In this document: piece after piece, positions 4,346-59,345 of the stretch | Layout of the letters: each line of letters begins with the position of its first letter | Numbering within the stretch: the first letter of the stretch is position 1 | From: a virus | Direction: 5' to 3' (one strand) | Virus record (IMG/VR): IMGVR_UViG_3300018059_000013 | DNA: 64,000 nt | Program-made: the position numbers and the translations under genes | The notes under the pieces: model-generated | What the model saw: only the letters and a program-made list of their open reading frames with translations | Databases searched by the model: none | What the model was told of the DNA's origin: nothing

Positions 4346-4378
4346 TTAATTGTAACATCTGACCCATTCGAATTCATC
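4346..4378 (-). promoter_or_regulatory. conserved promoter motif, instance 1: GATGAAT...TGTTACAAT (extended -10)
   Basis: Reverse complement reads GATGAATTCGAATGGGTCAGATGTTACAATTAAAC; same architecture as 13 other sites. Confidence 0.55.
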
Positions 4379-4580
4379 ACTCGGATGTTCGAATTTGTTC
4401 TCGGACCGATGCCTCCAAAGTTGAAGGGGTTTGGACCCAGAGACCGTACTGTTCCCGTGAAAGACCTAGATACTCGTGCAGCGGCCCGTCATCCGCTGGG
4501 GATTCGTGCCACCTGTCGACCCAATCGTAGATCTCGTCGATCGTTGCGATACCTTCTTTGACCGCTTGAACGAAAGTCAT
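4377..4580 (-). CDS. hypothetical small protein (67 aa)
   Basis: Minus-strand ORF. Confidence 0.35.
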   Translation of the reverse strand: MTFVQAVKEGIATIDEIYDWVDRWHESPADDGPLHEYLGLSREQYGLWVQTPSTLEASVREQIRTSE

Positions 4581-4702
4581 GCTTTACTCCGTAGAAACCG
4601 AGGCCTTTTCCGCAAGGGCCCGAGCCCCTCCTCTATTTCTTGTCAAGGTGGGCGCGAGCACACCTCCAGAAGCGCCGCAGATCGCTCTACTGATCGGAAG
4701 TT

Positions 4703-5296
4703 CTAGTACTTGTACTTGAAGCGATCGATCTCGTCTGGGAACATGATCGCCTTCACTTCTCCCCCGACGGCACGCAGCACGTGCGCATCGATGGCTCCGT
4801 GTTCGAGATCCTGGTAATCGTACAGCTTGAAAGATGCACCCTTCTTGATCGTACCTCCGCCCGAGCAGGGCATGTCGTACTTTGCGATGTAGGTCGCACC
4901 AGCGACAGCTCGATCACCTACGTACGCTTTGGATCGTCTTCGAGAGCTCCCCCTTTGGTACAAGGTCTTGTGATCATTGAAGACAGCGATGATCGTGGGC
5001 ATGATCTTCGCATGGACGCGTTTGAAGCGCTCTCGGAACCACGACCGGGGCCGTGAACACTTGGTGAAGCGTGTGATGAATTGAACCTTACCCATCGACG
5101 ACATGTTTCGGATGACCTCGTGGGCGAGGTCGATCTCGGCGTCCGAGCACTTCTCGTAGGACACGAGACGCAGCGCATTAGTGACATCGGGTTCGATGTC
5201 ATCGATGAGCTCGTCGGTCGGATAGATCTCGAACCCAAAATCGAGACGCTTGAGCTGTCCCCTGGATAGGGACGAAAATTTGAGCTGTGGTTCCAT
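4703..5296 (-). CDS. Y-family hypothetical protein, tandem paralog 1 (197 aa)
   Basis: Shares NALRLV...EIDLAxE(V/I)...RPRSWF...KI(M/F)P with the adjacent ORF 5309..5938. Confidence 0.55.
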   Translation of the reverse strand: MEPQLKFSSLSRGQLKRLDFGFEIYPTDELIDDIEPDVTNALRLVSYEKCSDAEIDLAHEVIRNMSSMGKVQFITRFTKCSRPRSWFRERFKRVHAKIMPTIIAVFNDHKTLYQRGSSRRRSKAYVGDRAVAGATYIAKYDMPCSGGGTIKKGASFKLYDYQDLEHGAIDAHVLRAVGGEVKAIMFPDEIDRFKYKY

Positions 5297-5308
5297 TTTG
5301 GTCCTCGG

Positions 5309-5938
5309 TCAGAACCTCCCCGCGAATTCGCAGGGAAACACGATGAGCCGGTGATTCACGGACTGATGACACTCGTTCTTCGTCACCCCTACATGAAATG
5401 TAACGTCCCAGGCGTTGTGTTCGAGTTGCGTCTTCGAGATGATGTCCACGAAGGACCCTGTGCCGATCCCTCTGGTGGGTGATATGGCGAGCGGTGTCGT
5501 GGTCTTGTGCCATCCGTACAGAAGAGAAGGAGCGGAACACGCGCCCGGGTGGCTACGGCGCATTCCCCAAGAGGCGTACGGACCGTACTCGTTGACATTG
5601 TTGATGAGCGGGAAGATCTTTGAAGAGATCACGATCATTCGAGCATCGAACCAGGACCGAGGGTAGTTTCCTTCATTTCTGGAGAAGAGAGACCAGAAGA
5701 GAACCCTCGCCGACGTCGAAGTCCGTTTCAAGATTTCGACTGCAAGGTCAATTTCCTTCTCTTCGATCTCTTCGCGGACGGTGACGAGACGCAGCGCGTT
5801 CATGATTGCTGGATCGACTCGCTTGAGAAGGCTCGGTGCGACCTTACATCCGAGATGCCAATCGAGCATGCAGATCTGCTCGTTGGTGAGTTGATTGAAC
5901 TCTACACCCAATGAACCGTATGTCCCGCTGCACTTCAT
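5309..5938 (-). CDS. Y-family hypothetical protein, tandem paralog 2 (209 aa)
   Basis: Paralog of 4703..5296. Confidence 0.55.
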   Translation of the reverse strand: MKCSGTYGSLGVEFNQLTNEQICMLDWHLGCKVAPSLLKRVDPAIMNALRLVTVREEIEEKEIDLAVEILKRTSTSARVLFWSLFSRNEGNYPRSWFDARMIVISSKIFPLINNVNEYGPYASWGMRRSHPGACSAPSLLYGWHKTTTPLAISPTRGIGTGSFVDIISKTQLEHNAWDVTFHVGVTKNECHQSVNHRLIVFPCEFAGRF

Positions 5939-5941
5939 GAT

Positions 5942-6433
5942 TCACTCCTCTTCGACGAAAAAAAACACGGCGGCGGTATCCTCTTCCGAGGAGTCTTCCA
6001 AGTTATGTTCCATCATGACAGTCGCGACCCATCCGCCCTTCGATTTGCGGAAGATGGATTCACGACACTTTTGCGGAATCAGCTTGAGCTTCTCGAGCGC
6101 TCGAACAACGGGATCGTCCGTCGGTTCTTCTGACACGGGAATCTCAACACGGGAGAATTCGTTGGCGAGAACTTTCTTTTCGATGGAGGAGAGGACCTCG
6201 GCACAGGAGGTCCCTGTGCCGGTCCATTGGGCGCGAAGCTCCTCTGCGTCGAAGATGGTTCCATCATCCGGAATGCCCAACTTGCGAGCGTGCGAGCAAA
6301 AGATCTTCTCCGCACTTTCATCTTCGATCTCGACCTCTTCCTCACTGAAAACATCTTGAGGATCTGGTTCGCCGCCCAACATCGTTCGTCTGTTAGCGAT
6401 CGGTGCCTTCTTGGCCTTTTTCTTCTTGACCAT
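5942..6433 (-). CDS. hypothetical acidic protein with K-rich N-terminus (163 aa)
   Basis: Minus-strand ORF; start abuts the stop of 5309..5938. Confidence 0.45.
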   Translation of the reverse strand: MVKKKKAKKAPIANRRTMLGGEPDPQDVFSEEEVEIEDESAEKIFCSHARKLGIPDDGTIFDAEELRAQWTGTGTSCAEVLSSIEKKVLANEFSRVEIPVSEEPTDDPVVRALEKLKLIPQKCRESIFRKSKGGWVATVMMEHNLEDSSEEDTAAVFFFVEEE

Positions 6434-6436
6434 CGA

Positions 6437-6748
6437 TCACTTTGTGGCCTTGGGCGTACCGGCACCTCGCTTGCGCTTCGCCGCGCGGGTCGCCTGACGC
6501 TGCAACTCGATGATTCCACCCTTGCGCTTGCGCCGATCTTCCTTGTCGGACTTGCGTTGGGCAGGACTCTTGTTGAGATGCCAACTCTTCACGGCGAGTT
6601 TCTCCTCTTCCCTGCCCTCGACCATCAATTCTCTTGCGAGTTGCTTGAGCGAGATGAACCGGTTGCCAATGATGGCTCTGCGGTGGAGACGCTTGAGAAC
6701 CTTGCCTGCCTTCATAATACGATACCTCTCATTCGACGGAGCTCTCAC
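6437..6748 (-). CDS. hypothetical highly basic protein (103 aa)
   Basis: K/R-rich, nucleic-acid-binding-like composition. Confidence 0.4.
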   Translation of the reverse strand: MRAPSNERYRIMKAGKVLKRLHRRAIIGNRFISLKQLARELMVEGREEEKLAVKSWHLNKSPAQRKSDKEDRRKRKGGIIELQRQATRAAKRKRGAGTPKATK

Positions 6749-8575: not shown

Positions 8576-8806
8576 TCACATCTTCTCGAAGTATCGATCA
8601 TCAATTAGGGCTTTTGGGCCCCACCGTCCGGGTAACCATCCGCGCCCGCCGCTGCTGAGCAGGTATGCGTGGTATCCCGCGGAGTTGTCATTCGCTATTA
8701 TCCACCCAAGGTAAACCACGATCCCACCCGCGGGGATTAAATACAATCTCGTGTGCGGTTTGAGTTGGATGTAGAGGCTAACGCCTTTGGTAGCTCGAAG
8801 CAACAT
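8576..8806 (-). CDS. hypothetical small protein (76 aa)
   Basis: Weak; contains an LIPAGGIVVYLG stretch reminiscent of the small-protein families. Confidence 0.25.
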   Translation of the reverse strand: MLLRATKGVSLYIQLKPHTRLYLIPAGGIVVYLGWIIANDNSAGYHAYLLSSGGRGWLPGRWGPKALIDDRYFEKM

Positions 8807-8811
8807 CAGGA

Positions 8812-10365
8812 TCAGGGCTTACGGGCATTGATCATCGCGATCTTTTCCAATTCAGCGGGGGGTAGTTCACCCGACGTGGGGTGGATGATGCGAACCAACC
8901 TCACGCAGTTACGAATCTCTCGGCCATTGAGATCGATCGCCGAGAGCGCAGAGATATCTCCCAAGGGGAGAATCTTCGCCTTGGCGAGCATGAGCTCCCA
9001 AATCTTCTGACGACGGTTGCTGTCGAGATCCGGGTAGTCCAACCTGACCGTGATGCGCGATGCGAACGCCGGGTCGAGCACCTCGGTGCGGTTCGTGGTC
9101 AGGAAGAGAGTTCCCCTGTACCGGTCGAGCACTCGAAGGAACACACCGACGATGGCGCTGCGCTCCAGCTCCTCCTTCGTACGTTCGGCCATGAAGATGT
9201 CGGCCTCGTCCAAGAGGAGGACGGCATTCCAACGGGTGACTCGTTGAAAGATCGTGTTGAGCGAGGATTCCACCTGGGCCACGTTGGTGCCGAGCTCGGT
9301 GAGATCGATCGAATACAGGGGACGCTTCATCGTGTGAGCGTACACCTCGGCCGTGAGGGTTTTTCCCACACCGGGTTTACCGGCCGCAAGGACGATGACT
9401 CCACCGTGGCGGTCGTTGAAAATGTCTCCGAAACCCTCGCTCCCGTTCCAGTTAAAGAGCGAGGTGAGGATGCTCTTCATGTTGTCGGGAAGAACGAGCC
9501 GCTCGTTCGCCTTCTCATCGTACTCGTACTTCTTCAGATTCTCGACGTCGATGTAAACGTATTCCTTCGTGTCGAGAGAGAAGCAACGTACCAGAGGTAG
9601 ATGTTTGTAACCAACCGATTGTTCGCTGTGGCGCGCACTTCTCGGATTGGATTCCATGTCAGGTTCGATCACGACACGTCCGATGTAGCCGAGAGGCAGA
9701 ACAACGGTCGGATCCCACCAAGTCGCGGACGTCTTGATTGCTTGACCGGTGCAAACGTACTGCGCACCCATTTCGTCCTTCGAGAGACGAATACACTCGA
9801 GGCGACTGGTCTTCCATCGAGTCAACGTTTCCTCTTGAATGGGACGCATGCCAGACGACGAAAGGATACTCCGAACGGTAGCTCCACCCATTTCAGAAAG
9901 GGTGTTCTCACCCAACGAGACAGATTTCGTGATGTTCTCCATACCGTCTGGCATCATGGCGATGGTCATGTTGGTGTAGAGGTACTTGCCAATGAACCCT
10001 TGTTCTAACTGACAGGCGGTCAGGAAGATCGGGTAGGATTTCCCAGCGAGCGTGAACTCGAGAGTCGGTTCGCTATCATCCTGAAGACGAATAAGGATGT
10101 TCGAAAACTTGATCAGGCTGGTCTGGGGTTCATCGAACTCCGCGTCGGAGACCCGATCACCCAAGAGCTTCCTGATCGCCTGTTTCGCCGCTGCACCGAG
10201 ACGCCCATTTCGGAGCAAAGCGCTGAGAATAGGCGGCGCGAGCTCTGCGAGCTTGACAGTCGTGTTTGCCGCGGCCGGATCCAAACCCACGATCTCCGTG
10301 TGTTCGATTCCCGCGTTCGCGGCGGCAGAGATGAGCTTCTTCGTATTGATCGAAAGTGATTCCAT
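8812..10365 (-). CDS. AAA+ ATPase, paralog B (517 aa): divergent N-terminal domain plus C-terminal classical AAA module
   Basis: Walker A GKPGVGKT, Walker B LLLDEADIF, TTNR, PAFASRI. ATG at 10363-10365 with AAGGA Shine-Dalgarno 8 nt upstream. Confidence 0.85.
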   Translation of the reverse strand: MESLSINTKKLISAAANAGIEHTEIVGLDPAAANTTVKLAELAPPILSALLRNGRLGAAAKQAIRKLLGDRVSDAEFDEPQTSLIKFSNILIRLQDDSEPTLEFTLAGKSYPIFLTACQLEQGFIGKYLYTNMTIAMMPDGMENITKSVSLGENTLSEMGGATVRSILSSSGMRPIQEETLTRWKTSRLECIRLSKDEMGAQYVCTGQAIKTSATWWDPTVVLPLGYIGRVVIEPDMESNPRSARHSEQSVGYKHLPLVRCFSLDTKEYVYIDVENLKKYEYDEKANERLVLPDNMKSILTSLFNWNGSEGFGDIFNDRHGGVIVLAAGKPGVGKTLTAEVYAHTMKRPLYSIDLTELGTNVAQVESSLNTIFQRVTRWNAVLLLDEADIFMAERTKEELERSAIVGVFLRVLDRYRGTLFLTTNRTEVLDPAFASRITVRLDYPDLDSNRRQKIWELMLAKAKILPLGDISALSAIDLNGREIRNCVRLVRIIHPTSGELPPAELEKIAMINARKP

Positions 10366-11266: not shown

Positions 11267-11965
11267 CTAACCCTGGGTGCCGACTGCCTTGTCGTCCACG
11301 ACGACGGTGACCTTCTCGTCTTCTTTGACGAGCTTTCCAACTTCCGCGACGAAATCGTCGGACTTCTTCTGCATACCCTCTCCGACTTCCATCCGAGCGA
11401 AGCGACGGATCTGGATGTTCTCACCTAGCTTCGCGACGAGCGCCAGCCGAAGCTGTTCGATCGTCTGCTTGGGATGGTGGATCGACTCCTGCTTGGAGAG
11501 GCACGCTTCCGTGAACCACTTTTCCATCTTCTCGGTGAGGATCTTTTCATGCATCTCTGTGGGAGTGTCCTTGATCTGCTCCCTGAAGATCTCGCGCTGG
11601 GTGTTCGCTTCGACGCTGTTGTAGAGCTTCGACGATTCCATGTCGACGTACGTCGGGTTCATCCCGGCGACTTGCATCGCGACCTCTTCACAGAAGTTCA
11701 CGAAATCCTCGTTCTTGGCGACGAAGTCGGTCTCGCAGTTCACTTCGACGATGACTGCTATCCGATTTCCCAGATGGATGTACGGATGGATGCGACCCTC
11801 GCTTGCGATTCTCGTTCCCTTCGCCACCGCCTTCGCGATGCCCTTTTTCTGGAGGATGACGAGCGCACCGTTGATGTCTCCCTTCGCTTCTTCGAGGGCC
11901 GCCTTGCAGTCTCCCAGGGGAGCGTTGGATCGTTCTCTGACTTCTCTGACTTGTTCGATGGACAT
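11267..11965 (-). CDS. tsf: translation elongation factor Ts (EF-Ts), short form (~232 aa)
   Basis: MSIEQVREVRERSNAPLGDCKAALEEAKGDI...VEVNCETDFVAKNEDFV...LVAKLGENIQIRRFARMEVGEG...DDFVAEV matches EF-Ts N-terminal UBA-like and core motifs. Listed start 11971 is TTG; ATG is at 11965. Confidence 0.85.
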   Translation of the reverse strand: MSIEQVREVRERSNAPLGDCKAALEEAKGDINGALVILQKKGIAKAVAKGTRIASEGRIHPYIHLGNRIAVIVEVNCETDFVAKNEDFVNFCEEVAMQVAGMNPTYVDMESSKLYNSVEANTQREIFREQIKDTPTEMHEKILTEKMEKWFTEACLSKQESIHHPKQTIEQLRLALVAKLGENIQIRRFARMEVGEGMQKKSDDFVAEVGKLVKEDEKVTVVVDDKAVGTQG

Positions 11966-12040: not shown

Positions 12041-13192
12041 TCACTTGCCCGCGACGGCCTTCTTCCCTTCCACGAGAACATCGGAGAGCTCGAGAAGCTC
12101 CTCCTCTGCCTTGACGTCCACCGCGGGGGACTCGGTCGGAGCGGCGATGCGTGCGTTGGTGACCGTCTTCTCCTCGCCACCGGGCAGCAGAGCGAGAGCG
12201 TCGTTGAGGACGGGCATCAGGTGCTCCATCACTCCACCGACGACCATGTCGAGACCTTCGGCCGTTCCCTGGATGCGGAACTCGGCGGCGAGCTTCTGGA
12301 GACGAGGATCAGCTGCCATACCTCCGACGTTCTGTCCCGCCATCGTGATCCCCCAACCCATGACGAGCTGGGTGAAAGCGACGCCGGCAGGAGACTTCAT
12401 GATGGCCTCCACGCTGGCGCCGTGCTCGGGACCGAGAGAGTTCTTCAGGACCTTGCACACGATGGTCGAACCACCCTGGCTGATCCGCTTGCCGGCGACT
12501 CGGTAGGCGGCCTCTTCGCCGTCGGACTTCACGATTTGGAACGCGGTCTTCTTCTCGGTCATTTTAGTCTCCTTCACTTCGGTTGCTGCTACTGCTACTG
12601 CGGGTTTGTCTTCCCAGGTTTCGGGGAGCGCTTTCGTGGACGACTTCTCTTCCAGATACTCCTTCGCTTCTTCGGGAAGGAGATCCGCCTCGGTCGCGTC
12701 GGCGACCTCTTCGGTCTGGCTGAGATGCCAGAAGGTGTGACCATTCAAAGCCGTTTTTCTTCCGAAGGAAACGTGATCCGAGACTGTGTACATCGTGTCG
12801 GGAGACAACCTGAACCCCTGAACCGGAGATCGCTTGTCCACCTTCAAAATGAAGTTCTTGTTGTCGTTTTGGCCGACGACTGTACCGACCATCGCACCGG
12901 CATTCGTCTGGAACTTGATCTGTTTTCCGATCTCGACCTTGCTCATGTAGACTCCATTCATGGTCCAAGTACAGTTCGGCCACGCCGAGCACCCAGTGAA
13001 TTCTTTCTTGGTGTATCTGTTAACTTTCGTGACGCCCAGAGCGCCGCACCTGGGGCACATCTTGGGAACTGGTGTCGCTGCGGCGGCAGCCTTTTCTTTG
13101 GCGGCTTTCTTCTTCTTCGCAGCGGTCGCATTCTTTTTACGGGTCGTGTCGCACGTCGAACACACCAATCCTTTCGGACACAAATAAGACAA
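12041..13192 (-). CDS. X-family protein, copy B (383 aa), with an N-terminal topoisomerase-I-type C4 zinc ribbon and K/A-rich linker
   Basis: CPRCGALGVTKVNRYTKKEFTGCSAWPNCTWT zinc ribbon; C-terminal 150 aa homologous to 2394..3332. Confidence 0.7.
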   Translation of the reverse strand: MSYLCPKGLVCSTCDTTRKKNATAAKKKKAAKEKAAAAATPVPKMCPRCGALGVTKVNRYTKKEFTGCSAWPNCTWTMNGVYMSKVEIGKQIKFQTNAGAMVGTVVGQNDNKNFILKVDKRSPVQGFRLSPDTMYTVSDHVSFGRKTALNGHTFWHLSQTEEVADATEADLLPEEAKEYLEEKSSTKALPETWEDKPAVAVAATEVKETKMTEKKTAFQIVKSDGEEAAYRVAGKRISQGGSTIVCKVLKNSLGPEHGASVEAIMKSPAGVAFTQLVMGWGITMAGQNVGGMAADPRLQKLAAEFRIQGTAEGLDMVVGGVMEHLMPVLNDALALLPGGEEKTVTNARIAAPTESPAVDVKAEEELLELSDVLVEGKKAVAGK

Positions 13193-13219
13193 GAGTCACA
13201 CTGCTTTCGATTCGCCCTC

Positions 13220-13705
13220 TTACGTCTTCTTGGGTTCGTCCTTGGGCCACCACTCGCCGTCGGCTTCGGTGCCGAAGCGATACGTCGACCAGATCTCAGC
13301 TTCCTCGATGGAGGAGTGACGAGCCACCACGATGACAACCGGAGCGGGCTGCTCCGGATAAGTTAATGCGAAGCCCGCGGACTGTCGGGGCATGTTCATG
13401 ACGTTCTTAGAGAAGTCCGGATAGCGCCGCATGATCTTCGGCTTACGAGGAAGCCAAGTTCGCAGACGGGGTCCTCGGGGACATTGGATGATCGTGCCCG
13501 CAGGGCAATCCTCCGCCGAAGATTTGAGAGTCACCGATTCGTGCTCGGGAGCCGGCTCGATCCGACCCTTCTTCGAACTATGAAGATTCTTACAGAAGTT
13601 GAATGCTAGCACGAAACCCGGAAAAACGATGGTATCAACCTTGCCCCCACGAAAGAACACAACACGATGGTACCTGGAGTTCTTCAAGATATCGTTCTCT
13701 TGCAT
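13220..13705 (-). CDS. hypothetical protein (~161 aa)
   Basis: Downstream of conserved promoter 13724..13756. The ATG at 13705 is preceded by GGAGG; the listed start 13720 sits at the predicted transcription start. Confidence 0.45.
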   Translation of the reverse strand: MQENDILKNSRYHRVVFFRGGKVDTIVFPGFVLAFNFCKNLHSSKKGRIEPAPEHESVTLKSSAEDCPAGTIIQCPRGPRLRTWLPRKPKIMRRYPDFSKNVMNMPRQSAGFALTYPEQPAPVVIVVARHSSIEEAEIWSTYRFGTEADGEWWPKDEPKKT

Positions 13706-13723: not shown

Positions 13724-13756
13724 TCAATTGTACCACCGGACCATCGCAGATTCATC
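13724..13756 (-). promoter_or_regulatory. conserved promoter motif, instance 2 (GATGAATC...TGGTACAAT)
   Basis: Reverse complement reads GATGAATCTGCGATGGTCCGGTGGTACAATTGAAAA. Confidence 0.55.
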
Positions 13757-17613: not shown

Positions 17614-17646
17614 ATTATTGTATCACCTGATGAATATCCGTTCATC
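17614..17646 (-). promoter_or_regulatory. conserved promoter motif, instance 3 (GATGAACG...TGATACAAT)
   Basis: Reverse complement reads GATGAACGGATATTCATCAGGTGATACAATAATAG. Confidence 0.55.
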
Positions 17647-19819: not shown

Positions 19820-20140
19820 TCACTCCTGCGGGTCTCTCACGCTGAACTCTTCGACCCATCCGATTTCAGAACCGAGCATGACGAGCTCTCGGCGGACGCA
19901 ACCGAAGTCGTTGGATCGAATCATCATAGTTCCCAGCCGTACGACTACTGTCCTATCGACGAGCATTCTTGCTGTAGGACGGTCGTCCTTTTCCAGCGTG
20001 AAGACCTCACGAGGAAGGAAGTAGGACCAACCGATGATGATACCAAGGCCCTTCTTCGAATCTTCGAATCGATGATTCATACGATGAGGACGAGACGCGG
20101 CGTGTCTTCGTCGGACCTGTTGTCGATCTTTTCGAAGCAT
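19820..20140 (-). CDS. hypothetical protein (about 85-106 aa)
   Basis: ORF only. Confidence 0.3.
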   Translation of the reverse strand: MLRKDRQQVRRRHAASRPHRMNHRFEDSKKGLGIIIGWSYFLPREVFTLEKDDRPTARMLVDRTVVVRLGTMMIRSNDFGCVRRELVMLGSEIGWVEEFSVRDPQE

Positions 20141-20442
20141 GCACCGGGAATCATCTCTCCAACCTTGATCGACGCCATCTGACCCTTGATGAGAATCAGA
20201 GCCCGGCAGAATCCATCGTTCAACATCTTGGATTGGACGACCTGAAACGTGTCATTCTGGCAGAGCTTGAGTTCATCGATGGGAGGGGAACGTACCATGT
20301 GCGTGACGTACACGTCTGGTTCGAAGACGGGAAATTCGACAGTCGCGAACATACGATACAGACCAGGTTTCATGCTCTGCCTTTTGTTGCTAAATCCGCA
20401 CGTCATACGAACCGAAAGCTCAGGTCGCTCTCCATTTCCCAT
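20077..20442 (-). CDS. hypothetical protein (internal start of the 192-aa ORF)
   Basis: C-terminal half is protein-like; the N-terminal part overlaps 20420..20917. Confidence 0.3.
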   Translation of the reverse strand: MGNGERPELSVRMTCGFSNKRQSMKPGLYRMFATVEFPVFEPDVYVTHMVRSPPIDELKLCQNDTFQVVQSKMLNDGFCRALILIKGQMASIKVGEMIPGACFEKIDNRSDEDTPRLVLIV

Positions 20443-20917
20443 TTTGAATGTACGAAAGAAGCCCACCTGGAGTGGAACTGTTGATGTAGTTTTGGTCGTT
20501 TTCCTTGGGGGCGACGATGCAAAGGTTGTAGTCACCAACCTTAGGATCGAATTCCACGAAGAGATCGAAGGTTCGAAATCGAATCGACGCTCCGAGCAGG
20601 GTGAACTCTGCCGTCGCCTGGACCGGGGGAATTCGAAGGAGGCGAGAACGTCCAATTGAACCCTTTATTCGATCCTCAGCCGTCGTCTGATTGAGATAGA
20701 GATTGGGAGTCGTGTCGTGTTCGGACCTGTATACTTCGACGAGAGGAGATTTTGTCACATCCGACGGACTGATCTCGAAGGATCGGAGAACTTCTTTGAA
20801 GTCCAATTCTTTAGAATAGAGATGATTCCCTGTTCCCACGTTACGTTGTGGATCGCTTTTGATATCCTCGAAATCTCGAAGAGCATGAGCATAATCGATG
20901 ATTTTCTTTAGATTCAT
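20420..20917 (-). CDS. hypothetical protein (165 aa)
   Basis: Protein-like. Confidence 0.45.
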   Translation of the reverse strand: MNLKKIIDYAHALRDFEDIKSDPQRNVGTGNHLYSKELDFKEVLRSFEISPSDVTKSPLVEVYRSEHDTTPNLYLNQTTAEDRIKGSIGRSRLLRIPPVQATAEFTLLGASIRFRTFDLFVEFDPKVGDYNLCIVAPKENDQNYINSSTPGGLLSYIQNGKWRAT

Positions 20918-21186
20918 TCAGGCCTCGCCCACAACTTAACGTCCGATTCGAATTCCCAGAACATACGACCGCCGACGAGAAGGAGAAGTATCCAACTGTC
21001 GGCGAAAAGAGTGCGAGCTAGGACTACTACCCATCCACTCGGCACCCTTTCTTTTCGAACCATGAAGGTCCATTTCCCCGAACCGGGGTGACCCACTTCG
21101 GTGGGTTTTATGTACGTTCGAGTCGGGGCTAACCAGACCGACCGCAGAGGAACGAAAATGGTCGGTAACGGTTTTTTCTTCGCCAC
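20914..21186 (-). CDS. hypothetical membrane protein (90 aa)
   Basis: Weak; contains a TM-like stretch. Confidence 0.25.
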   Translation of the reverse strand: MAKKKPLPTIFVPLRSVWLAPTRTYIKPTEVGHPGSGKWTFMVRKERVPSGWVVVLARTLFADSWILLLLVGGRMFWEFESDVKLWARPE

Positions 21187-21209
21187 GAATCATCGTTCTT
21201 TTCATCCTC

Positions 21210-21277
21210 CGAAGTAGAATACTGCAGAACCCAGGATGAGGAGGTCGGGGTCGAGAGCCCTGCAGTATTCTACTTCG
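21210..21277. repeat. 18-bp perfect inverted repeat (CGAAGTAGAATACTGCAG ... CTGCAGTATTCTACTTCG) with a 32-nt loop
   Basis: Seen directly; lies immediately downstream of the stop of gene 21293..21766. Confidence 0.6.
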
Positions 21278-21292
21278 AAGCATCGTTCGGGT

Positions 21293-21766
21293 TTACGCGG
21301 CGCGCTCTCTCGGCATGATCACCCGACACGAGTAGCAAGCGTACTGACCATTGACGATCGAGCTGGCGGCGACGTCCTTGTTCATAGCGCCGCACTTGCA
21401 GGTGTGATTTCCAAAGGCCGTGAGTTCCGAAAGATACGTGGGATCGTACAACCGGACCGCTTCGGGTGCACAGATCCAGAAGAACCGCCGTTCTCCAGGG
21501 ACGATCGCCTCGATCATTTTCCTGATGACATGGTTCGTCGCGGACATCGACTGTTTCAATGAAAACGCGCCGAGGGTGTACACGTCCAACATGACTAGAA
21601 CTTGTGAACCTTGAACGAGTGGACTCACCACCCGGGCTAGGACAGGACTTGCTTGGCTCAACCATCGATTTTCATGGAGACCGAACGTCGGTTCGTCCGA
21701 AAGAAAGATCCGTGTGCCAGGTTTCAGATCCTCCCAGCCGGAGGGCGTCTTGAATTGTTGGTTCAT
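21293..21766 (-). CDS. hypothetical protein (157 aa)
   Basis: Protein-like. Confidence 0.45.
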   Translation of the reverse strand: MNQQFKTPSGWEDLKPGTRIFLSDEPTFGLHENRWLSQASPVLARVVSPLVQGSQVLVMLDVYTLGAFSLKQSMSATNHVIRKMIEAIVPGERRFFWICAPEAVRLYDPTYLSELTAFGNHTCKCGAMNKDVAASSIVNGQYACYSCRVIMPRERAA

Positions 21767-21768
21767 GG

Positions 21769-22146
21769 TCAGGTCCCAGTCATGACAGGAAGAAGATCTT
21801 CCTCCGAGTCTTCCTCTTCACCGATGTTGGACATGAACTCGTCGAACGCTTCGTCTTGGACGAACCCAAGCTTGAGAAGCTGCTCTTCAACCTCGTTCAT
21901 GGTACGCGCCGTGGCGTAGCAGTTGTCCTGAACCTCGTCCATGTCGTCGGGCACCACTTCATCTAGGATGTCGTAGATTGCTTTCGACATCGATCCACTC
22001 TCTTTGAAGAACTTGATCGGACAGAAGTATGCGTACGTATCGCCGTCGGTTTCATCCTCCTCCAAGTAGAAGCAGAAGTCTGTTGCGGCCATCTTTGTCA
22101 ACGTGCTCTCGTCATCTTTCGCTGACTCGGTCTTATTCGCTTCCAT
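21769..22146 (-). CDS. hypothetical acidic protein (125 aa)
   Basis: GGGAG Shine-Dalgarno 7 nt upstream of the ATG; promoter instance upstream. Confidence 0.5.
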   Translation of the reverse strand: MEANKTESAKDDESTLTKMAATDFCFYLEEDETDGDTYAYFCPIKFFKESGSMSKAIYDILDEVVPDDMDEVQDNCYATARTMNEVEEQLLKLGFVQDEAFDEFMSNIGEEEDSEEDLLPVMTGT

Positions 22147-22187
22147 CTGGGACTCCCGATTGCTTCGGACTTATACAAGTCCATTGT

Positions 22188-22220
22188 TTGATTATACCAC
22201 TTGAGTACCAAGCATTCATC
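22188..22220 (-). promoter_or_regulatory. conserved promoter motif, instance 4 (GATGAATG...TGGTATAAT)
   Basis: Reverse complement reads GATGAATGCTTGGTACTCAAGTGGTATAATCAAACA. Confidence 0.6.
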
Positions 22221-22240
22221 CATGCAATGAACATTGAGTT

Positions 22241-22570
22241 TCAATGCCACCATCGTGTGTGGGCATTCGATTCGCTCGAGAATGGAATCACACCCTTCAT
22301 TCCCGCAGCCAGGAGCACACTGATTCCTTCATCGCAGAGACGAACGCCTACCCACCGCCAGTTGCGCTTGGCCCTGACAACGAAGAGAGACATCACACTT
22401 TCAACTTGCGGCAGCTTCCGCTTGATCGGAAGAAGGGCTTGGAATATCGGACGAAGCTCATTGTTCGCTATCCACACGTGCGCCATGAACTTGAATCTCT
22501 CGTACGCGTCGGAATTGTTCTTCTGAACTTCCGCCCACGTCACGATCGGATACCCCGACGTGCCTTTCAC
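22241..22570 (-). CDS. hypothetical protein (109 aa)
   Basis: ORF only. Confidence 0.4.
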   Translation of the reverse strand: MKGTSGYPIVTWAEVQKNNSDAYERFKFMAHVWIANNELRPIFQALLPIKRKLPQVESVMSLFVVRAKRNWRWVGVRLCDEGISVLLAAGMKGVIPFSSESNAHTRWWH

Positions 22571-22679
22571 GCTCGAGTGGACTGAACGCGCTTGATGACT
22601 GCATCGACGATTACCGCGACGACGTACATCTTGATGAGGTCCAATCCCAGGTTGAAAGCGTAGTTGTTCGTGATAGATT

Positions 22680-22958
22680 TCATCTAAGCTCCTCTAGATA
22701 CGTTTCGTACTTGTTGTCTGTTCGTGCGACCCACCCACGATGACCTGTTTGAGATACGATCAGGTGCCAATCATAATTTGTTGGGTAACGGTTGTTGAAA
22801 AGAGGTGAACCTTTGGTAACGAAGTCGTAGGAGATCACTATCTCCCCAATTCTGAGTATAGCGGGCTTATCAACATCTGCAAAAATGTGTGTCGAATTTT
22901 CGTTCGGTTTTTCGAAGATGTAGAGCCCGGATGTTTCGACTACCTTGAAAATGAGCAT
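22680..22958 (-). CDS. small-family protein (92 aa)
   Basis: LRIGEIVISYDF motif. Confidence 0.35.
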   Translation of the reverse strand: MLIFKVVETSGLYIFEKPNENSTHIFADVDKPAILRIGEIVISYDFVTKGSPLFNNRYPTNYDWHLIVSQTGHRGWVARTDNKYETYLEELR

Positions 22959-23180
22959 TTAACCCACTCCAACAGAAACAACGATTCCATCCTTGACAGA
23001 GAAGTTGATTCTTCCTTCCCGAAAGGTCGATTCGAGGCTGTAGGGCTCTCCGTCGACCTCCACAAGCCGAACGACGAAGTCCATGTCCGCTGCGACCTTA
23101 GTAGCTGCCTCCACGGTCTTTCCGACCATGATTTCGAGCCCTGGAGGGACCGCTTTTTCGGAATTCATGAAAATGCTCAT
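22959..23180 (-). CDS. hypothetical small protein (73 aa)
   Basis: ORF only. Confidence 0.35.
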   Translation of the reverse strand: MSIFMNSEKAVPPGLEIMVGKTVEAATKVAADMDFVVRLVEVDGEPYSLESTFREGRINFSVKDGIVVSVGVG

Positions 23181-23816: not shown

Positions 23817-23899
23817 CGGCTTTTTGTAGCATGGATTTCCAGGAATCTAGTACGAAGTGTCCCGTCGTGCCTTTTAAGTGTGACAGACGGCCTCTTTGA

Positions 23900-24367: not shown

Positions 24368-24435
24368 GTCTATAACCCCCTTCGATCGTCGCCTGGCAGC
24401 GGAAGCAGATTATCTGACTCCCATTCCACTATTAG

Positions 24436-40436: not shown

Positions 40437-40472
40437 TTGTTAATTGTATCACACGAAGAAAATAGATTCATC
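40437..40472 (-). promoter_or_regulatory. conserved promoter motif, instance 8 (GATGAATC...TGATACAAT)
   Basis: Reverse complement reads GATGAATCTATTTTCTTCGTGTGATACAATTAACAAGG. Confidence 0.6.
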
Positions 40473-41385: not shown

Positions 41386-41453
41386 GATGAGAGCCGCAGA
41401 TCTGGATCGAACAGACGACAACCGCTTTACGAAAACGGGGCTCTACCTCTGAG

Positions 41454-41933
41454 CTACTGCGGCGAAGGATATTTGTAGTACTTTTTTCGTAGTATCAATC
41501 GCGATGTCTTAAATTTTCCTCTGTTTTTTCCAGCGTACGAATCAGTTTGCGCGTGGCAATTAGGACAGATGAATCTGAGATTTTCTATCGAATTGATCTC
41601 AGGATTTCCGTCAACGTGATCCATTTGAATGGGAGCGGATTTCCCACACCATTCTTCGATCCCGCAAATTTCGCATTTTACTCCTCTTTCAGAGAGGAGT
41701 CTCGTCTTTCTAGTACCATCTTTTTTGACATCTTCGAATGCCAGTGCGTGCAATCGTTTGTGACCGCCCAGCCGATATCCAGTCTCAAAATGCTTTCTGC
41801 AGATATTGTACGTATGAGTTTTGTCAGATGGTGGAATTTTCCACGAAGGATCTCTTCGTGTGTGTCCACTACGATGTCCTCCTAAACGAGAAGAATTCTC
41901 GAACTCTTTCCCATGCACGTCGCATGAAAACAT
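41454..41933 (-). CDS. HNH endonuclease with N-terminal C2H2-type zinc fingers, copy 2
   Basis: MFSCDVHGKEF...GGHRSGH; CEICG...QMDHVDGN...NLRFICPNCH. Paralog of 35215..35676. Confidence 0.75.
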   Translation of the reverse strand: MFSCDVHGKEFENSSRLGGHRSGHTRRDPSWKIPPSDKTHTYNICRKHFETGYRLGGHKRLHALAFEDVKKDGTRKTRLLSERGVKCEICGIEEWCGKSAPIQMDHVDGNPEINSIENLRFICPNCHAQTDSYAGKNRGKFKTSRLILRKKYYKYPSPQ

Positions 41934-45783: not shown

Positions 45784-46304
45784 TTCACCCGGTATTGACG
45801 AAGACTGTTCTTACTATAGACACTGAAGGGAGCATGCGTCTTTTTCATCCACCCATCGGGGACGATGTCTGCAGCATCACTGTTGTGGACGAAGATCACG
45901 AGATCGTAATCGAATTCCTTGTTCAGGCTCTCGTGGTTGCCGTCCGATAGGACGAAGAGTTTCCCATCGGGGGACATCTTCCGTGCGTACAGAATCGCCT
46001 GGCGGAGGTCCGTCCCTCCGGTCTGGGTCTTGCGCACATTGATGATGTCTTCGTACGTCGGATTTCCGAGGAACGAAACTGCGAAGGACGTATGATGCCA
46101 GCCCACCACGCAGTCACCGGGACGGAAGCGATGGGAGATGTATCTCGCCATGTCCATGAACATGCTACCCGATGTGCTGCCCGAGTAATCGATGAGAAAC
46201 ACGGTCTTTTCGTTGTTTTCCATAATGTCTACTTTCCTTCGTTCCAGGCACCCACGAGCGGAAGAACGATGATCGTTTTGAGAGAAACTTTCGACTCGAT
46301 CCAC
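45780..46304 (-). CDS. von Willebrand factor A (vWA) domain protein with an intact MIDAS motif (174 aa)
   Basis: VFLIDYSGSTSGS (DxSxS), TGGTDLRQAI, and LSDGN at the end of the domain. Confidence 0.6.
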   Translation of the reverse strand: MDRVESFSQNDHRSSARGCLERRKVDIMENNEKTVFLIDYSGSTSGSMFMDMARYISHRFRPGDCVVGWHHTSFAVSFLGNPTYEDIINVRKTQTGGTDLRQAILYARKMSPDGKLFVLSDGNHESLNKEFDYDLVIFVHNSDAADIVPDGWMKKTHAPFSVYSKNSLRQYRVK

Positions 46305-46591
46305 GCCTTTACCTTCTCACGGTCGAGATCGGTGCAATGGACATTCTTGTAGTGCATCTTACCGTTCGACTTACGTCGGGTCGGCACGCACTTGGTGACG
46401 AATTGTTCCATGCGCTCGCTGCTGGTGCAACCGCCGCTACCGAGATCGTTAGCCTCAAGGTACTCGAGGAATTCGTCGAGGAAATCGTCGACCTCGCTCT
46501 CGGAGAGCAGAGGGAAGAACACGCACAGGATTTCGAATCCCTTGTAGTCGAATTCACGGAGGTGTTTTTTCTTTCGGAGCCTGCGATTCAT
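46229..46591 (-). CDS. YggL (DUF469)-family protein
   Basis: MNRRLRKKKHLREFDYKGFEI...DDFLDEFLEYLEANDLGSGG matches the YggL N-terminal signature RRLRKKLH..EF..GF. Confidence 0.6.
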   Translation of the reverse strand: MNRRLRKKKHLREFDYKGFEILCVFFPLLSESEVDDFLDEFLEYLEANDLGSGGCTSSERMEQFVTKCVPTRRKSNGKMHYKNVHCTDLDREKVKAWIESKVSLKTIIVLPLVGAWNEGK

Positions 46592-46863
46592 CACAACCAC
46601 TCATCCTTGACGAACATCCATTCGCTGCGAAATTTGCCAGCAGGCGTCAGAACCCGACCCGTCCAACAATCATACTGATCGTTGTACTTGGTGCAAACAT
46701 CGACGACTAACATGATCTCGTCCGGCATCATGCTATTTTGATCACATTTGATGATGAAAACATCGCCGAGCTGCGGAGGGTTCGATTGAGATCGAACTGT
46801 TGAATTGAATCTTCGGATCACATCCGCTCCCAATCGCTCATCGTCCAATCCCAAGGATTCCAA
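46591..46863 (-). CDS. small-family protein (90 aa, QLGDVFII)
   Basis: ORF only. Confidence 0.35.
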   Translation of the reverse strand: MESLGLDDERLGADVIRRFNSTVRSQSNPPQLGDVFIIKCDQNSMMPDEIMLVVDVCTKYNDQYDCWTGRVLTPAGKFRSEWMFVKDEWL

Positions 46864-50865: not shown

Positions 50866-50898
50866 TTTATTGTACCATGGGTTGCATCACAGTTCATC
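50866..50898 (-). promoter_or_regulatory. conserved promoter motif, instance 9 (GATGAACT...TGGTACAAT)
   Basis: Reverse complement reads GATGAACTGTGATGCAACCCATGGTACAATAAACC. Confidence 0.55.
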
Positions 50899-52666: not shown

Positions 52667-52700
52667 AAATTCTATCACATGGTCGATGCAGAGGTTCATC
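52667..52700 (-). promoter_or_regulatory. conserved promoter motif, instance 10 (GATGAACC...TGATAGAAT)
   Basis: Reverse complement reads GATGAACCTCTGCATCGACCATGTGATAGAATTTAAATG. Confidence 0.6.
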
Positions 52701-53460: not shown

Positions 53461-53493
53461 ATTATTGTACCACACGATTCACGTACGTTCATC
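53461..53493 (-). promoter_or_regulatory. conserved promoter motif, instance 11 (GATGAACG...TGGTACAAT)
   Basis: Reverse complement reads GATGAACGTACGTGAATCGTGTGGTACAATAATAAGG. Confidence 0.6.
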
Positions 53494-53495
53494 GA

Positions 53496-54030
53496 ATGGA
53501 ATCGCTCCAAAAAAGAGCGAGCAACTCACTGCTCGCATTTCTACACGTCAGATGCACTATTTTTCCTACATTTCCTTGCGAATGTACTACGCGCGCGCCT
53601 GTGTGCGCGCAAGGCGTGAGCTACAAAAGTAGCTCTTAGAGAGAATCCTCATCTAAGTTCCGAGAGCCTCATGGCGGGTCACGTGGTGATTGGATCTTAG
53701 GAAGAATGCATCCTGTTCCAGGGCGTCCTGATGAATTGACGCAATTTTCTCGGGATCGATAGGTTTTTGCAGAAAGAGATCGAGCATCAATGAGAAGTAC
53801 TTCTCATTGATGCTCAAGGGCCCTACCCAAGAGTTCTATTCAGACCTATTTCATCCTCTTGGCGAGAGAGGAGAGCTCACGATTCAGACGTTTCTGACAA
53901 CAGAAACACCCGGAGCCATCGAGTCCCGGACGTAGACAGTTCATCGAAACTGTCGCTCGACGAGTGAAGGAACTTCTGATTCCTTCCCATAGGAACATGA
54001 GAGTCTCTCTGAACGTTAGCTTTCCGAGCC
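53496..54030. other. ~530-bp highly structured non-coding region B
   Basis: Four hairpins plus a 30-nt perfect palindrome GCATCAATGAGAAGTACTTCTCATTGATGC at 53784..53813; the GC hairpin GCGCGCGCCTGTGTGCGCGC followed by CGTGAGCT recurs at 23190..23221. No convincing ORF. Confidence 0.4.
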
Positions 54031-55010: not shown

Positions 55011-55502
55011 TCACGCCGCCTTCGTGGCAGTCTTCTTCGCCGCCGCTGCAGCCTGCTTCGCAGCCTCGCGGCCGTCGCGGTTCTGCTTGAGCCTCTCACC
55101 GGTGGCGGCGATCGTGTCCATCGACGCCGAACCATCCTCGTTCGTCGGGATGAACTCCCAATGCGGCAGGCCGATTCCCTTTGCAGGGACGTCTCCGTAG
55201 GTCGAACCGTCCGACATGACGACGCCGGTGACCTTGCGCGGGGGAAGGTTCTTGCGAACCTCGGCGTGCTGGGTCGCGACCTCGTCGCCGAGGCTCAGCT
55301 CGAGGTCGCCGTCGGGAGCGGTGAGAACCACCGCCGGGGGATACCCACCGTCCTCGACGGACTGGGTCGCGCTGAGGATGTATGCCGTTTGGTCAGGCGC
55401 GAAAGCTCCGCTGCGCTCACGTTCCTGGCAGTGGAACTTCGACGACGTGGGGAGACAGAAAATGCCGACGAGCGACTTGGTGGTGCGATTCTTGCGGATC
55501 AT
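55011..55502 (-). CDS. P-family hypothetical protein, copy 2 (163 aa, A/K-rich C-terminal tail)
   Basis: Paralog of 23900..24367; AGGAG Shine-Dalgarno 8 nt upstream; own promoter instance. Confidence 0.55.
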   Translation of the reverse strand: MIRKNRTTKSLVGIFCLPTSSKFHCQERERSGAFAPDQTAYILSATQSVEDGGYPPAVVLTAPDGDLELSLGDEVATQHAEVRKNLPPRKVTGVVMSDGSTYGDVPAKGIGLPHWEFIPTNEDGSASMDTIAATGERLKQNRDGREAAKQAAAAAKKTATKAA

Positions 55503-55569: not shown

Positions 55570-55601
55570 CCATTATAACATTTGACTGAAATTGATTCAT
55601 C
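55570..55601 (-). promoter_or_regulatory. conserved promoter motif, instance 12 (GATGAATC...TGTTATAAT)
   Basis: Reverse complement reads GATGAATCAATTTCAGTCAAATGTTATAATGG. Confidence 0.6.
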
Positions 55602-58230: not shown

Positions 58231-58279
58231 GAATCCTCCTCGGGCGTTTCGTTGGAGGTTGAAAACCTCCATTTAGTAA

Positions 58280-58309
58280 ATTTTACCATAGGACGGACAT
58301 TCATTCATC
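58280..58309 (-). promoter_or_regulatory. conserved promoter motif, instance 13 (GATGAATG...TGGTAAAAT)
   Basis: Reverse complement reads GATGAATGAATGTCCGTCCTATGGTAAAATTTAC. Confidence 0.55.
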
Positions 58310-58332
58310 CCATGAGAAATTCTCTGCATCGA

Positions 58333-58656
58333 TCAGAACTTCGGAGTTAGCGAGGCCGAACGAATTTCGCACACTTTCTTTGTCTTGACGAAGATGATCT
58401 TGTTATCTCGTTCGTTCTTCTCATCGAATATGAGAACGGCCCTCTCAGAATTTGCCGTTTCCCAGCAGTTCTTTGTGACGACTAAGCCGGTGTAGTCTCG
58501 ACTGCCAACACGGGCTTTTATCGAGTACACGTTCGACTCCACACGGGTCACCTCTCCGATGTAGACCTGCGGTCCGATGAGAAGGAAGATGATGAGGAAC
58601 TTCACTTGTTCACCGGTTTGATCTGTCCTGAAGAGACGTTGCATTCGTACGAACAC
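58333..58656 (-). CDS. hypothetical protein (107 aa)
   Basis: ORF only. Confidence 0.4.
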   Translation of the reverse strand: MFVRMQRLFRTDQTGEQVKFLIIFLLIGPQVYIGEVTRVESNVYSIKARVGSRDYTGLVVTKNCWETANSERAVLIFDEKNERDNKIIFVKTKKVCEIRSASLTPKF

Positions 58657-58814
58657 ACGGGTTTCATGTTCGTGATGACGTCACACAACGCAGAATACTC
58701 GGACTGAACGAACTCTTTCTTGCAGCCGGTGCACAAGACCTTTCGTGTGCGATGTCCGAGTTTGCCGCTCCATCCGTCCTTGTCTACTTGAACTTCTTTC
58801 CGTCCCACACCCAT
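58602..58814 (-). CDS. small zinc-ribbon protein (70 aa)
   Basis: CTGCKKEF...CSYEC. Confidence 0.35.
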   Translation of the reverse strand: MGVGRKEVQVDKDGWSGKLGHRTRKVLCTGCKKEFVQSEYSALCDVITNMKPVCSYECNVSSGQIKPVNK

Positions 58815-59083
58815 GATAGCTTCATCCCCTTCTTGAGATAATGTGGTTGATCAGCGGAGACGTAGAACTTTCCATCATCTTCGTCGAAGTTGTACACCCA
58901 GCTTGCGAATCCCTCATCATCCTTGAACGTCTTCGGTGGAAAGACAAGCACCTTCTTATTCAGAAGGTACAGACCCTTCATGACACCGGGCAGGAAGTCC
59001 TCGACATCGTAGTTGCCGAGTAAGTCTTCGTTGATGAGCTCGATCAAGTTCGACGGGGCAACAAGAGGGTACGTCTTCTTCAT
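58784..59083 (-). CDS. hypothetical protein (99 aa)
   Basis: ORF only. Confidence 0.45.
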   Translation of the reverse strand: MKKTYPLVAPSNLIELINEDLLGNYDVEDFLPGVMKGLYLLNKKVLVFPPKTFKDDEGFASWVYNFDEDDGKFYVSADQPHYLKKGMKLSWVWDGKKFK

Positions 59084-59084
59084 G

Positions 59085-59250
59085 CTACTTCGAACTTCTC
59101 CATAGCTTCACCGAAATGACCTCGAACTTATCGTTGTCCTTCTCGATGAATTCGATCTTCTGTACGAGTTCTGTCCACGATTCTGCATGGAGAAAGTGTT
59201 TCGCCTTGGGGCCCTTATTGATTTCGACTTCGATTTCGAACTTCATTGGA
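59085..59250 (-). CDS. 55-aa hypothetical protein (below the track cutoff)
   Basis: MKFEIEVEINKGPKAKHFLHAESWTELVQKIEFIEKDNDKFEVISVKLWRSSK; AGGAAG Shine-Dalgarno; downstream of promoter 59316..59345. Confidence 0.35.
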
Positions 59251-59315
59251 GGATCTTCCTGGTGCGGACGACCTCTTTCGTTTGTTTCACGTCCCCGACC
59301 TCCACTCCTAATTGA

Positions 59316-59345
59316 ATTATACCATAGGACAGAAACCGGTTCATC
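59316..59345 (-). promoter_or_regulatory. conserved promoter motif, instance 14 (GATGAACC...TGGTATAAT)
   Basis: Reverse complement reads GATGAACCGGTTTCTGTCCTATGGTATAATTCAATTAGG. Confidence 0.6.

Follow-up and report, generated by a model that had tools for sequence, protein, structure and literature searches.

The window analyzed here is a stretch of 64,000 nucleotides (64 kb) from IMG/VR virus record IMGVR_UViG_3300018059_000013, the last 64 kb of a metagenomic contig of approximately 350 kb that originates from an uncultivated huge phage. Across the overlapping stretches that were fetched it is 100% identical to NCBI entry CACVEL010000001.1 (GCA_902730045.1, 350,418 bp), which extends 16 nt beyond the end of the window, and the inspected part of the ~350-kb genome comprises the window and about 19 kb of flanks. 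Genes were called by self-trained codon usage, and approximately 115 of the 123 called in the window are found on the minus strand. Pfam searches on some 115 open reading frames (ORFs) of the window, together with NCBIfam, identified only AAA ATPases, a family X DNA polymerase, a homologue of EF-Ts (TIGR00116, 167 bits) and a WecG-type glycosyltransferase, as well as Band 7, YggL, VapE-like, trypsin-like and nucleoside deoxyribosyltransferase-like proteins. About half of the ORFs were also compared with PHROGs, with an HNH endonuclease as the sole match. In the gaps between the minus-strand genes a motif of about 30 bases, GATGAAY-N14-TGnTAyAAT, is found time and again, and this motif, its conservation and its probable role as a promoter are the subject of the present analysis.

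A bipartite motif on the minus strand

The N14 spacing between the two elements is exact in 13 copies, and a single copy at 52700 shows N16 instead. The downstream element alone, TGnTAYAAT, has 10 exact matches in the window, all on the minus strand, where 1.18 would be expected, and each of them is preceded by GATGAAY at exactly 14 nt, so that the GATGAA class accounts for all of the window's exact TGnTAYAAT sites. With at most one mismatch allowed, GATGAA-N15-TGNTANAAT (pattern TGnTAnAAT) yielded 13 matches, again exclusively on the minus strand, against 0.04 expected. A position weight matrix (PWM) was built from the 13 N14-spaced sites and scanned over both strands (128 kb). The 13 sites scored 29-40 bits, or 19-38 bits in the leave-one-out analysis, and the best score outside of this set was 7.4 bits on the minus strand and 6.4 bits on the plus strand. 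It is this gap between the 13 scores and the next best site that defines the putative promoters as a discrete class.

An initial annotation of the window had described at least 14 copies of an extended -10 promoter with a fixed upstream box, confined to the minus strand. Its count holds if the N16 copy is added to the 13 others, and so does the confinement to one strand, with 13 of 13 matches and 10 of 10 exact -10 sites on the minus strand; the PWM scan that it had proposed showed the sites to be strand-exclusive. The class as such, an extended -10 element with a fixed upstream box, is likewise supported by the statistics, by intergenic position and orientation, by the purine at the predicted start and by conservation in relatives. 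A gap of 8-13 nt between the elements had been given, but the pattern written in this way has no match at all, as the real distance is 14 nt after GATGAAY, or 13 nt after GATGAAyy. Several conserved features had gone unnoticed, namely TC at -20/-19, the purine at -16, the pyrimidine at -42 and the A/T-rich stretch from -6 to +3 with its purine at +1.

The anatomy of the motif was compiled from 38 copies, 13 of them from the window, with the final T of TAyAAT numbered as -7. The hexamer GATGAA at -36 to -31 is essentially invariant and is followed by a pyrimidine at -30 in 33 of 38 copies, and a further pyrimidine is found upstream at -42 in 37 of 38. In the spacer, position -20 is T in 31 and position -19 is C in 37 of the 38 copies. 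A purine occupies -16 in every copy, T-15 and G-14 are each present in 36, and C is never found at -13. Within the -10 hexamer TAyAAT, T-12, A-11, A-8 and T-7 are conserved in all 38 copies and A-9 in 37. The region from -6 to +3 has an A+T content of 69%, compared to 47% for the whole window, and at the predicted +1 position, 7 nt past the hexamer, 19 of 21 copies carry a purine. In this numbering ATGAAY at -35 to -30 stands in the register of a -35 element, separated from the -10 by a spacer of 17 bp. It shares only T-34, G-33 and A-32 with TTGACA, and a standard scan for TTGACA/TATAAT misses these sites. Note that the canonical arrangement TTGACA-N16-18-TATAAT is not enriched in the window (3, 11 and 9 occurrences versus 7.4, 12.4 and 11.2 expected), and that a k-mer enrichment analysis for a second intergenic motif or promoter class in the window yielded nothing consistent.

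Copies in the window and in relatives

All 14 copies in the window are located in gaps between minus-strand genes and are oriented with the coding strand. Most begin 7-30 nt past the upstream stop codon, and two, 27934 and 4378, overlap it. The distance from the end of the -10 to a plausible start codon, in many cases preceded by a strong Shine-Dalgarno sequence, is 17-72 nt and in one case (50898) 183 nt, a wider range than the 20-40 nt stated in the initial annotation. A terminator-like hairpin lies upstream of only one copy (53493), and convincing minus-strand terminators are few (63126-63155, 53517-53536, 39285-39307 and 31500-31514). Given that an upstream terminator is mostly missing, most copies would add to read-through rather than start isolated operons. 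The operon map anticipated from the motif is usable, with transcription units that probably overlap.

Read along the minus strand, the first copy (59316-59345, GATGAAC-N14-TGGTATAAT, 36.1 bits) has a predicted start at about 59309 and a first ORF with its ATG at 59246, and it is identical in L150 and L151. The copy at 58280-58309 (GATGAAT-N14-TGGTAAAAT, 38.9 bits) would start transcription at about 58273, upstream of an ATG at 58230 with the ribosome-binding sequence AGGAGG, and the one at 55572-55601 (GATGAAT-N14-TGTTATAAT, 35.8 bits) at about 55565, upstream of an ATG at 55502 with AGGAG that opens a gene of the P0241 paralogue family. At 53464-53493 (GATGAAC-N14-TGGTACAAT, 38.7 bits) the ATG at 53446 follows 17 nt past the -10, and the terminator-like hairpin at 53517-53536 lies upstream; this is the sole clear arrangement of a terminator followed by a promoter in the window. 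Further upstream, a perfect hairpin with a 17-bp stem (53780-53817 (-)) lies in a doubtful ORF of 54 amino acids and precedes this terminator-like hairpin, which carries a T run. The atypical copy at 52669-52700 (GATGAAC-N16-TGATAGAAT) has a spacer longer by 2 nt and its TC out of register; an ATG follows at 52637, and its function is less certain. The weakest of the 13 is found at 50869-50898 (GATGAAC-N14-TGGTACAAT, 29.2 bits), with AC instead of TC at -20/-19, and the next ORF of at least 35 amino acids begins 183 nt downstream, at 50685.

The copy at 40443-40472 (GATGAAT-N14-TGATACAAT, 38.8 bits) precedes an ATG at 40417. At 30206-30235 (GATGAAC-N14-TGATAGAAT, 38.8 bits) the GATGAA box itself contains the ATG at 30234 that had been listed as the start of an ORF, and the best-scoring copy, 27905-27934 (GATGAAC-N14-TGATACAAT, 40.4 bits), has its box overlapped by the upstream stop codon and is followed by an ATG at 27864 with AGGAGG. 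That the listed starts 27936 and 30234 fall within or at a promoter had been recognized in the initial annotation, whose plus-strand example of the motif is indeed present at 27902, and the four Shine-Dalgarno sequences it pointed out (27864, 58230, 55502 and 22146) were all located. The copy at 24440-24469 (GATGAAT-N14-TGGTAAGAT, 35.0 bits) serves an ATG at 24367 in a gene paralogous to the one at 55502, and the copy at 22191-22220 (GATGAAT-N14-TGGTATAAT, 32.0 bits) precedes an ATG at 22146 with GGGAG. Both 17617-17646 (GATGAAC-N14-TGATACAAT, 39.4 bits, ATG 17581) and 13727-13756 (GATGAAT-N14-TGGTACAAT, 35.8 bits, ATG 13705 with GGAGG) have orthologous copies in L146, L147 and L156. The last copy, 4349-4378 (GATGAAT-N14-TGTTACAAT, 34.4 bits), again has its box overlapped by the upstream stop codon, with candidate starts at 4318 and 4303. 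Several of the leaders look hairpin-like by eye, and a stabilizing 5' hairpin was considered as a general leader feature; this was rejected, as the folding energy of +1 to +45 averages -8.2 kcal/mol versus -9.1 kcal/mol for random windows (p=0.76).

The motif recurs in relatives of the phage. Eleven copies were found in L146 and L158 (SRR21686405, a 349-kb contig with protein identities of ~66-70%), three in L147 (SRR31712301, AAA ATPase 70% identical), two in L156 (SRR21686422, EF-Ts 71% identical, nucleotide identity 76-82%) and four, with two additional variants, in L160 (SRR15221285, P0241 homologue 59% identical). These copies immediately precede called genes and are oriented like them, several standing before orthologues of window genes. 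In these relatives, at approximately 60-80% protein identity, the motif is found before orthologous genes with its boxes kept and with spacers and flanks changed. Those loci that were aligned to the window by blastn proved collinear with it, with no breakpoint at any motif. Five more copies are present in L159. This locus was considered as a more distant lineage, which was rejected because it is contiguous with the window: its last 2.8 kb are 100% identical to window positions 61213-64000 and its first 11.3 kb lie beyond the window end. In the other direction, a single variant occurs at position 17730 of L152, approximately 4.4 kb past the window start on CACVEL010000001.1; it reads GTTGAAC-N14-CTTATAAT, equivalent to TTGAAC-17-TATAAT, and precedes a ligase operon. 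The more distant huge phages L154 and L155, with AAA ATPases 38-41% identical, contain no copies in about 21 kb each.

Drift within the lineage is seen as GAGGAAT in L159, as GCCGAAA-N14-GGGTATAAT twice in L160 and as a decayed orthologue, GTAGAAT...GATTATAAT, in L158. The core that persists consists of G-36, G-33, A-32 and A-31 together with the -10, and TC is shifted or lost in L160 and L159 with the remaining motif kept. The L160 copies that combine GCCGAAA with GGGTATAAT in place of GATGAA with TGnTATAAT, one of them at approximately 9920-9955 (+), may represent a co-varying subclass. In the same locus a good copy, GATGAAA-N14-TGATATAAT at 5326-5355 (-), points antisense into a plus-strand gene and stands back-to-back with a variant copy at 5414-5443 (+). 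When the exact motif was scanned in IMG/VR and a metagenome collection, only single matches occurred among the matches listed, at about the rate of chance, and the AAA ATPase, compared with GTDB genomes, had just one match, unrelated and of 28% identity.

The reader of the motif

We consider it very probable that the motif represents promoters of the sigma-70-family holoenzyme type, on account of its information content, its two boxes set 17 bp apart, the TRTG element, the A/T-rich discriminator, the purine at +1, and the position, orientation and conservation of the copies. Most likely they form a clade-specific extended -10 promoter class of the phage's own, as 14 copies precede gene clusters on one strand and the class recurs in relatives. 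They would drive a one-directional block of at least about 60 kb with mostly small, unfamiliar genes, whose gene content and layout suggest that it is expressed early. The near-perfect extended -10 (T/n-R-T-G-n-T-A-y-A-A-T, -17 to -7) would be contacted by sigma regions 2.4 and 3.0 and the GATGAA box (-36 to -31, with a TGA core at -34 to -32) by region 4 or a partner attached to it, and transcription is predicted to start at the purine about 7 nt past the -10 in the A/T-rich discriminator. Most copies would act as reinforcing internal promoters inside long polycistronic transcripts.

This raises the question of which sigma factor is involved. The host RNA polymerase with its primary sigma, whose region 4 would contact the GATGAA box, is the probable reader, favored by the exact -35 register with its TGA core, by the TTGAAC variant in L152 and by the textbook extended -10. 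The motif indeed has much in common with bacterial extended -10 (TRTGn) promoters, namely T-R-T-G-n followed by a TATAAT-like hexamer at -17 to -7, a 17-bp spacer, a TGA-containing hexamer and a purine start about 7 nt on; it differs from them in that ATGAAY replaces TTGACA and is conserved as strongly as the -10. Individual bacterial promoters are far more variable, and reused, highly conserved promoter classes are standard in large lytic phages.

A direct precedent for reading by the host primary sigma is given by the early promoters of T4-type phages ('uber' UP/-35/TGn/-10 promoters), which carry a phage-specific hexamer and need no phage factor. They are read by the unmodified host sigma-70 holoenzyme and consist of TGn, a -10 element and GTTTAC at -36 to -31, with additional conserved positions; dozens of near-identical copies per genome precede early genes and many small novel ORFs, and in RB49, RB43 and Aeh1 a G is preferred at -33 (PMC2988021, PMC1524935). 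With its many near-identical copies, an excellent -10 with TGn and a phage-specific hexamer at -36 to -31 the present class resembles them, and we regard them as the closest analogue, in design rather than by homology. The differences are that the hexamer is GATGAA and not GTTTAC, that no A/T-rich UP element is found here, and that C-19 and Y-42 are conserved; the latter two may be additions of the phage's own that make binding stronger or adjust it, in the manner of T4 early promoters. As far as is visible the two phages are unrelated, as megablast of window positions 20000-40000 against catalogued phages gave no nucleotide match and the HNH endonuclease is the only PHROG match in the half of the ORFs compared.

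Several observations weigh against reading by a sigma-70-type holoenzyme of the host alone. The A+T content upstream, 0.54 at -66 to -47 and 0.51 at -46 to -37 against a background of ~0.47, provides no UP element. GATGAA is invariant, with A and not T at -35, and shows no drift toward TTGACA within the class; it is stricter than the usual -35 element of a primary sigma, which fits a more specific reader. To our knowledge, C-19 and Y-42 (37 of 38 copies each) correspond to no assigned contact in standard sigma-70 promoters. The copies in relatives were located with the window-derived PWM, so that conservation at the strongest positions is in part circular. A phage sigma or activator may also be encoded elsewhere, since the search covered 64 of ~350 kb and ~19 kb of flanks, and distant L154, with an AAA ATPase 38% identical to that of the window, does encode a sigma-70-family protein. 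With roughly one chance in four, GATGAA, C-19 and Y-42 could be read by an unrecognised specificity factor of this huge-phage clade and not by the host primary sigma alone. Such a factor, encoded by one of the ORFans, might be a protein, injected or made early, that commandeers sigma region 4, or else a novel sigma-like factor, and it would constitute a second, independent invention of sigma appropriation in the style of T4.

A more specific proposal, akin to the dedicated regulator or MotA-style sigma-appropriating factor suggested in the initial annotation, is that of activator-dependent middle or delayed-early promoters of the T4 MotA/AsiA type, on which host sigma occupies the -10 and a phage protein binds GATGAA, perhaps with C-19 or Y-42, instead of sigma region 4 contacting a -35 element. 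T4 middle promoters combine a host-type -10, often with TGn, with a phage box that replaces the -35, and occur in many copies (PMC2988021, PMC6755090). The invariant, non-canonical box that stands here in the place of a -35, together with an excellent -10 and TGn, has this very architecture (PMC2988021); the box is conserved more strictly than typical -35 elements, further invariant positions lie outside known sigma contacts, and the region is not enriched in canonical -35/-10 promoters. The MotA box itself, (a/t)(a/t)(a/t)TGCTTtA, is centred at -30 at a distance of 12+/-1 bp from the -10 and is tolerant of changes (PMC2988021), whereas GATGAA at -36 to -31 lies 18 bp from the -10 (17 bp counted from ATGAAY) at a fixed spacing and in exact -35 register, is nearly invariant, lacks TGCTT and has TGA in common with TTGACA. 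The Pfam and NCBIfam searches of the window found no MotA, AsiA, sigma or RNA polymerase domain and no other transcription-factor domain, and PHROGs revealed none in the half of the ORFs compared. The variant TTGAAC-17-TATAAT suggests that the position of the box is read as a -35, and as the promoters head what appears to be the earliest block, an activator would need to enter along with the DNA or be made elsewhere beforehand. We regard an activator of this type as unlikely, and the dedicated regulator of the initial annotation was not substantiated.

Less probable still is a phage-encoded factor of the sigma-70 family, with primary-like regions 2.4 and 3.0 and a region 4 that prefers GATGAA. 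The fixed two-box geometry and the near-invariant consensus would be typical of promoters for a dedicated sigma, and the Sigma70_r2/r4 protein of distant L154 is encoded three genes downstream of the AAA ATPase homologue (12697-13704; L154 comes from a distant huge phage, or else is a contig assigned to a metagenome-assembled genome, GCA_040384165.1, of 62% G+C). Yet a sigma gene is missing from the window, from L152 and from the syntenic stretches of close relatives, the motif itself is absent from the ~21 kb each of L154 and L155, and a -10 with TRTG is what a primary sigma classically reads; the phage sigmas known to us (T4 gp55, SPO1 gp28 and gp33/34, phiEco32 gp36) read -10 elements unlike TATAAT. 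A different solution is found in phiKZ and AR9, giant phages that likewise reuse a conserved early consensus tens of times at a fixed distance from the start. The early promoters of these phages are single extended A/T-rich blocks, in AR9 AAATATATATTAT-N6-G with the start 6 nt downstream, and are read by multisubunit virion polymerases of the phage without sigma (PMC5312081). The present motif differs in being bipartite, with a G+C-containing upstream box and sigma-70 geometry in DNA of 52% G+C, and no RNA polymerase domain was found among the window ORFs.

The right part of the spacer, T-n-n-r-T-C at -24 to -19, is a weak inverted copy of GATGAA, and the two might form an imperfect 18-bp inverted repeat for a dimeric phage repressor that would shut the whole class off later in infection. 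Such an operator could overlie any other reading, and its overlap with the -35 and the spacer would be a typical repressor position. The palindrome is perfect only at 17646 (GATGAACGGATATTCATC), others, such as 30235, end in CATC, and T-20 (31 of 38), C-19 (37 of 38) and -24, most often T (17 of 38), match the inverted half. We nevertheless hold this role to be improbable, slightly more so than a phage sigma: the left half is invariant and the right half conserved at only two of six positions, unlike sites for homodimers, the window ORFs showed neither a helix-turn-helix nor another repressor domain, and TC shifts or is lost in L160 and L159 while the rest is kept. Finally, a repeated intergenic signal other than a promoter, for recombination or module shuffling, for replication or packaging, or as a cassette of the PeSL type (a stem-loop terminator with an early promoter) as it occurs between novel ORFs of T4-like phages (PMC4122927), would suit a repeated element amid small ORFs and paralogues, but is highly improbable, as the information is placed, spaced and oriented as in a sigma-70-type promoter, a terminator-like hairpin precedes only one of the 14 copies (53493), unlike in PeSL cassettes, the loci compared by blastn are collinear, and leader hairpins are no more stable than random windows.

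Other features of the region and significance of the motif

The paralogue family with the N-terminal motif FCLPTSxKFH is restricted to this phage clade, with 32 members among 5.8 billion proteins. It has at least four copies in the 349-kb relative and is represented in the window (55011-55502 and 23900-24367 (-)), in L158 (10001-10492), in L159 (3610-4110 and 6826-7338) and in L160 (2521-3039, 5489-5965 and 10001-10771). Most of the examined copies follow a promoter of the GATGAA class or a degenerate variant of it. The leader opens with a hairpin, GGTGGyA...TrCCACC, in which one compensatory change from C:G to T:A distinguishes copies, and it could be a cis-regulatory or stabilizing element. 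RNAalifold reported no structure for the leaders of one paralogue family, for which the automatic alignment had set the hairpins out of register. L158 encodes a stand-alone response-regulator receiver domain (8712-9092) that lies shortly before one promoter copy on its upstream side; neither this protein nor the sigma-70-family protein of L154 has a counterpart in the window.

Among the translation-related genes of the window are the EF-Ts homologue at 11267-11965 (-), which scores above the curated cut-off, and a homologue of the 50S-binding protein YggL at 46229-46600 (-). The best named cellular matches of EF-Ts are from Haliangium, Polyangiaceae, Nannocystaceae and Myxococcota (42-52% identity), with others from Omnitrophica and Acidobacteriota, and the proximity of this sequence to Myxococcota may provide a weak lead to the host; note that L146 and L147 lack EF-Ts at the corresponding position. 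Transfer RNA genes for Glu, Gln and Thr are present, with tRNAs at 32750-32822, 35710-35782 and 41391-41463 (-), and two tRNA-like genes with irregular anticodon loops were reported by ARAGORN at 32833-32905 and 38887-38964 (-), both below the threshold of the Rfam tRNA model. Amid the small ORFs, and directly upstream of tRNA-Gln on the coding strand, 35215-35676 (-) encodes the HNH endonuclease (PHROG 10822, E=2e-24) with an N-terminal C2H2 zinc finger, possibly a mobile element.

Upstream of the first promoter copy in the window, two large predicted lipoproteins of 348 and 518 amino acids with lipobox signal peptides are encoded at 60058-62678 (-). They have no match in Pfam, NCBIfam or PHROGs, and the smaller one contains repeated Cys-rich CGxxxxC modules. 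Paralogy is also seen in two AAA ATPases of 517 and 526 amino acids (8812-10365 versus 1-1468 (-)) that share a patch of 71% nucleotide identity, and by eye in a common C-terminal module of 2394-3332 and 12041-13192 (-) (...RLAKEFRV/AAEFRI...LPGG) and in the adjacent ORFs of about 200 amino acids at 4703-5296 and 5309-5938 (-). With regard to the end of the contig, L150, an independent ENA contig of 322,706 bp, starts within 2 nt of the end of CACVEL010000001.1, and these coincident contig ends suggested a physical genome end. This was downgraded to an assembly breakpoint, as the assembly of L159 (11323-14110 being the overlap) reads through into another 11.3 kb, which holds more small genes and five additional promoters. 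For P0265 and P0260, two proteins of this stretch, the exact sequences are not recorded on the 350,418-bp contig, and the assembly seems to have broken at the contig end in a strain-variable or repeated region, where the deposited genome may be incomplete.

The consensus GATGAAY-N14-TGnTAyAAT was not found in the searchable literature, nor did the accessions turn up there, and we are most likely dealing with a familiar kind of feature that has a new consensus. It provides a first transcription map for a region whose genes match almost no known family, with 14 likely transcript starts marked in the window and about 20 if the flanks are included, and it corrects start codons from 27936 to 27864 and from 58272 to 58230 and removes the spurious start at 30234. 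The motif delimits a co-regulated block, which may be a block for host takeover, and its consensus can be used to recognize relatives and to delimit the same class of genes in them. If the box requires a phage factor, the clade would hold a new system for the redirection of bacterial RNA polymerase. If the host polymerase suffices, the box would show what the polymerase of this host accepts, and the promoters could serve as candidate strong parts for the host group.

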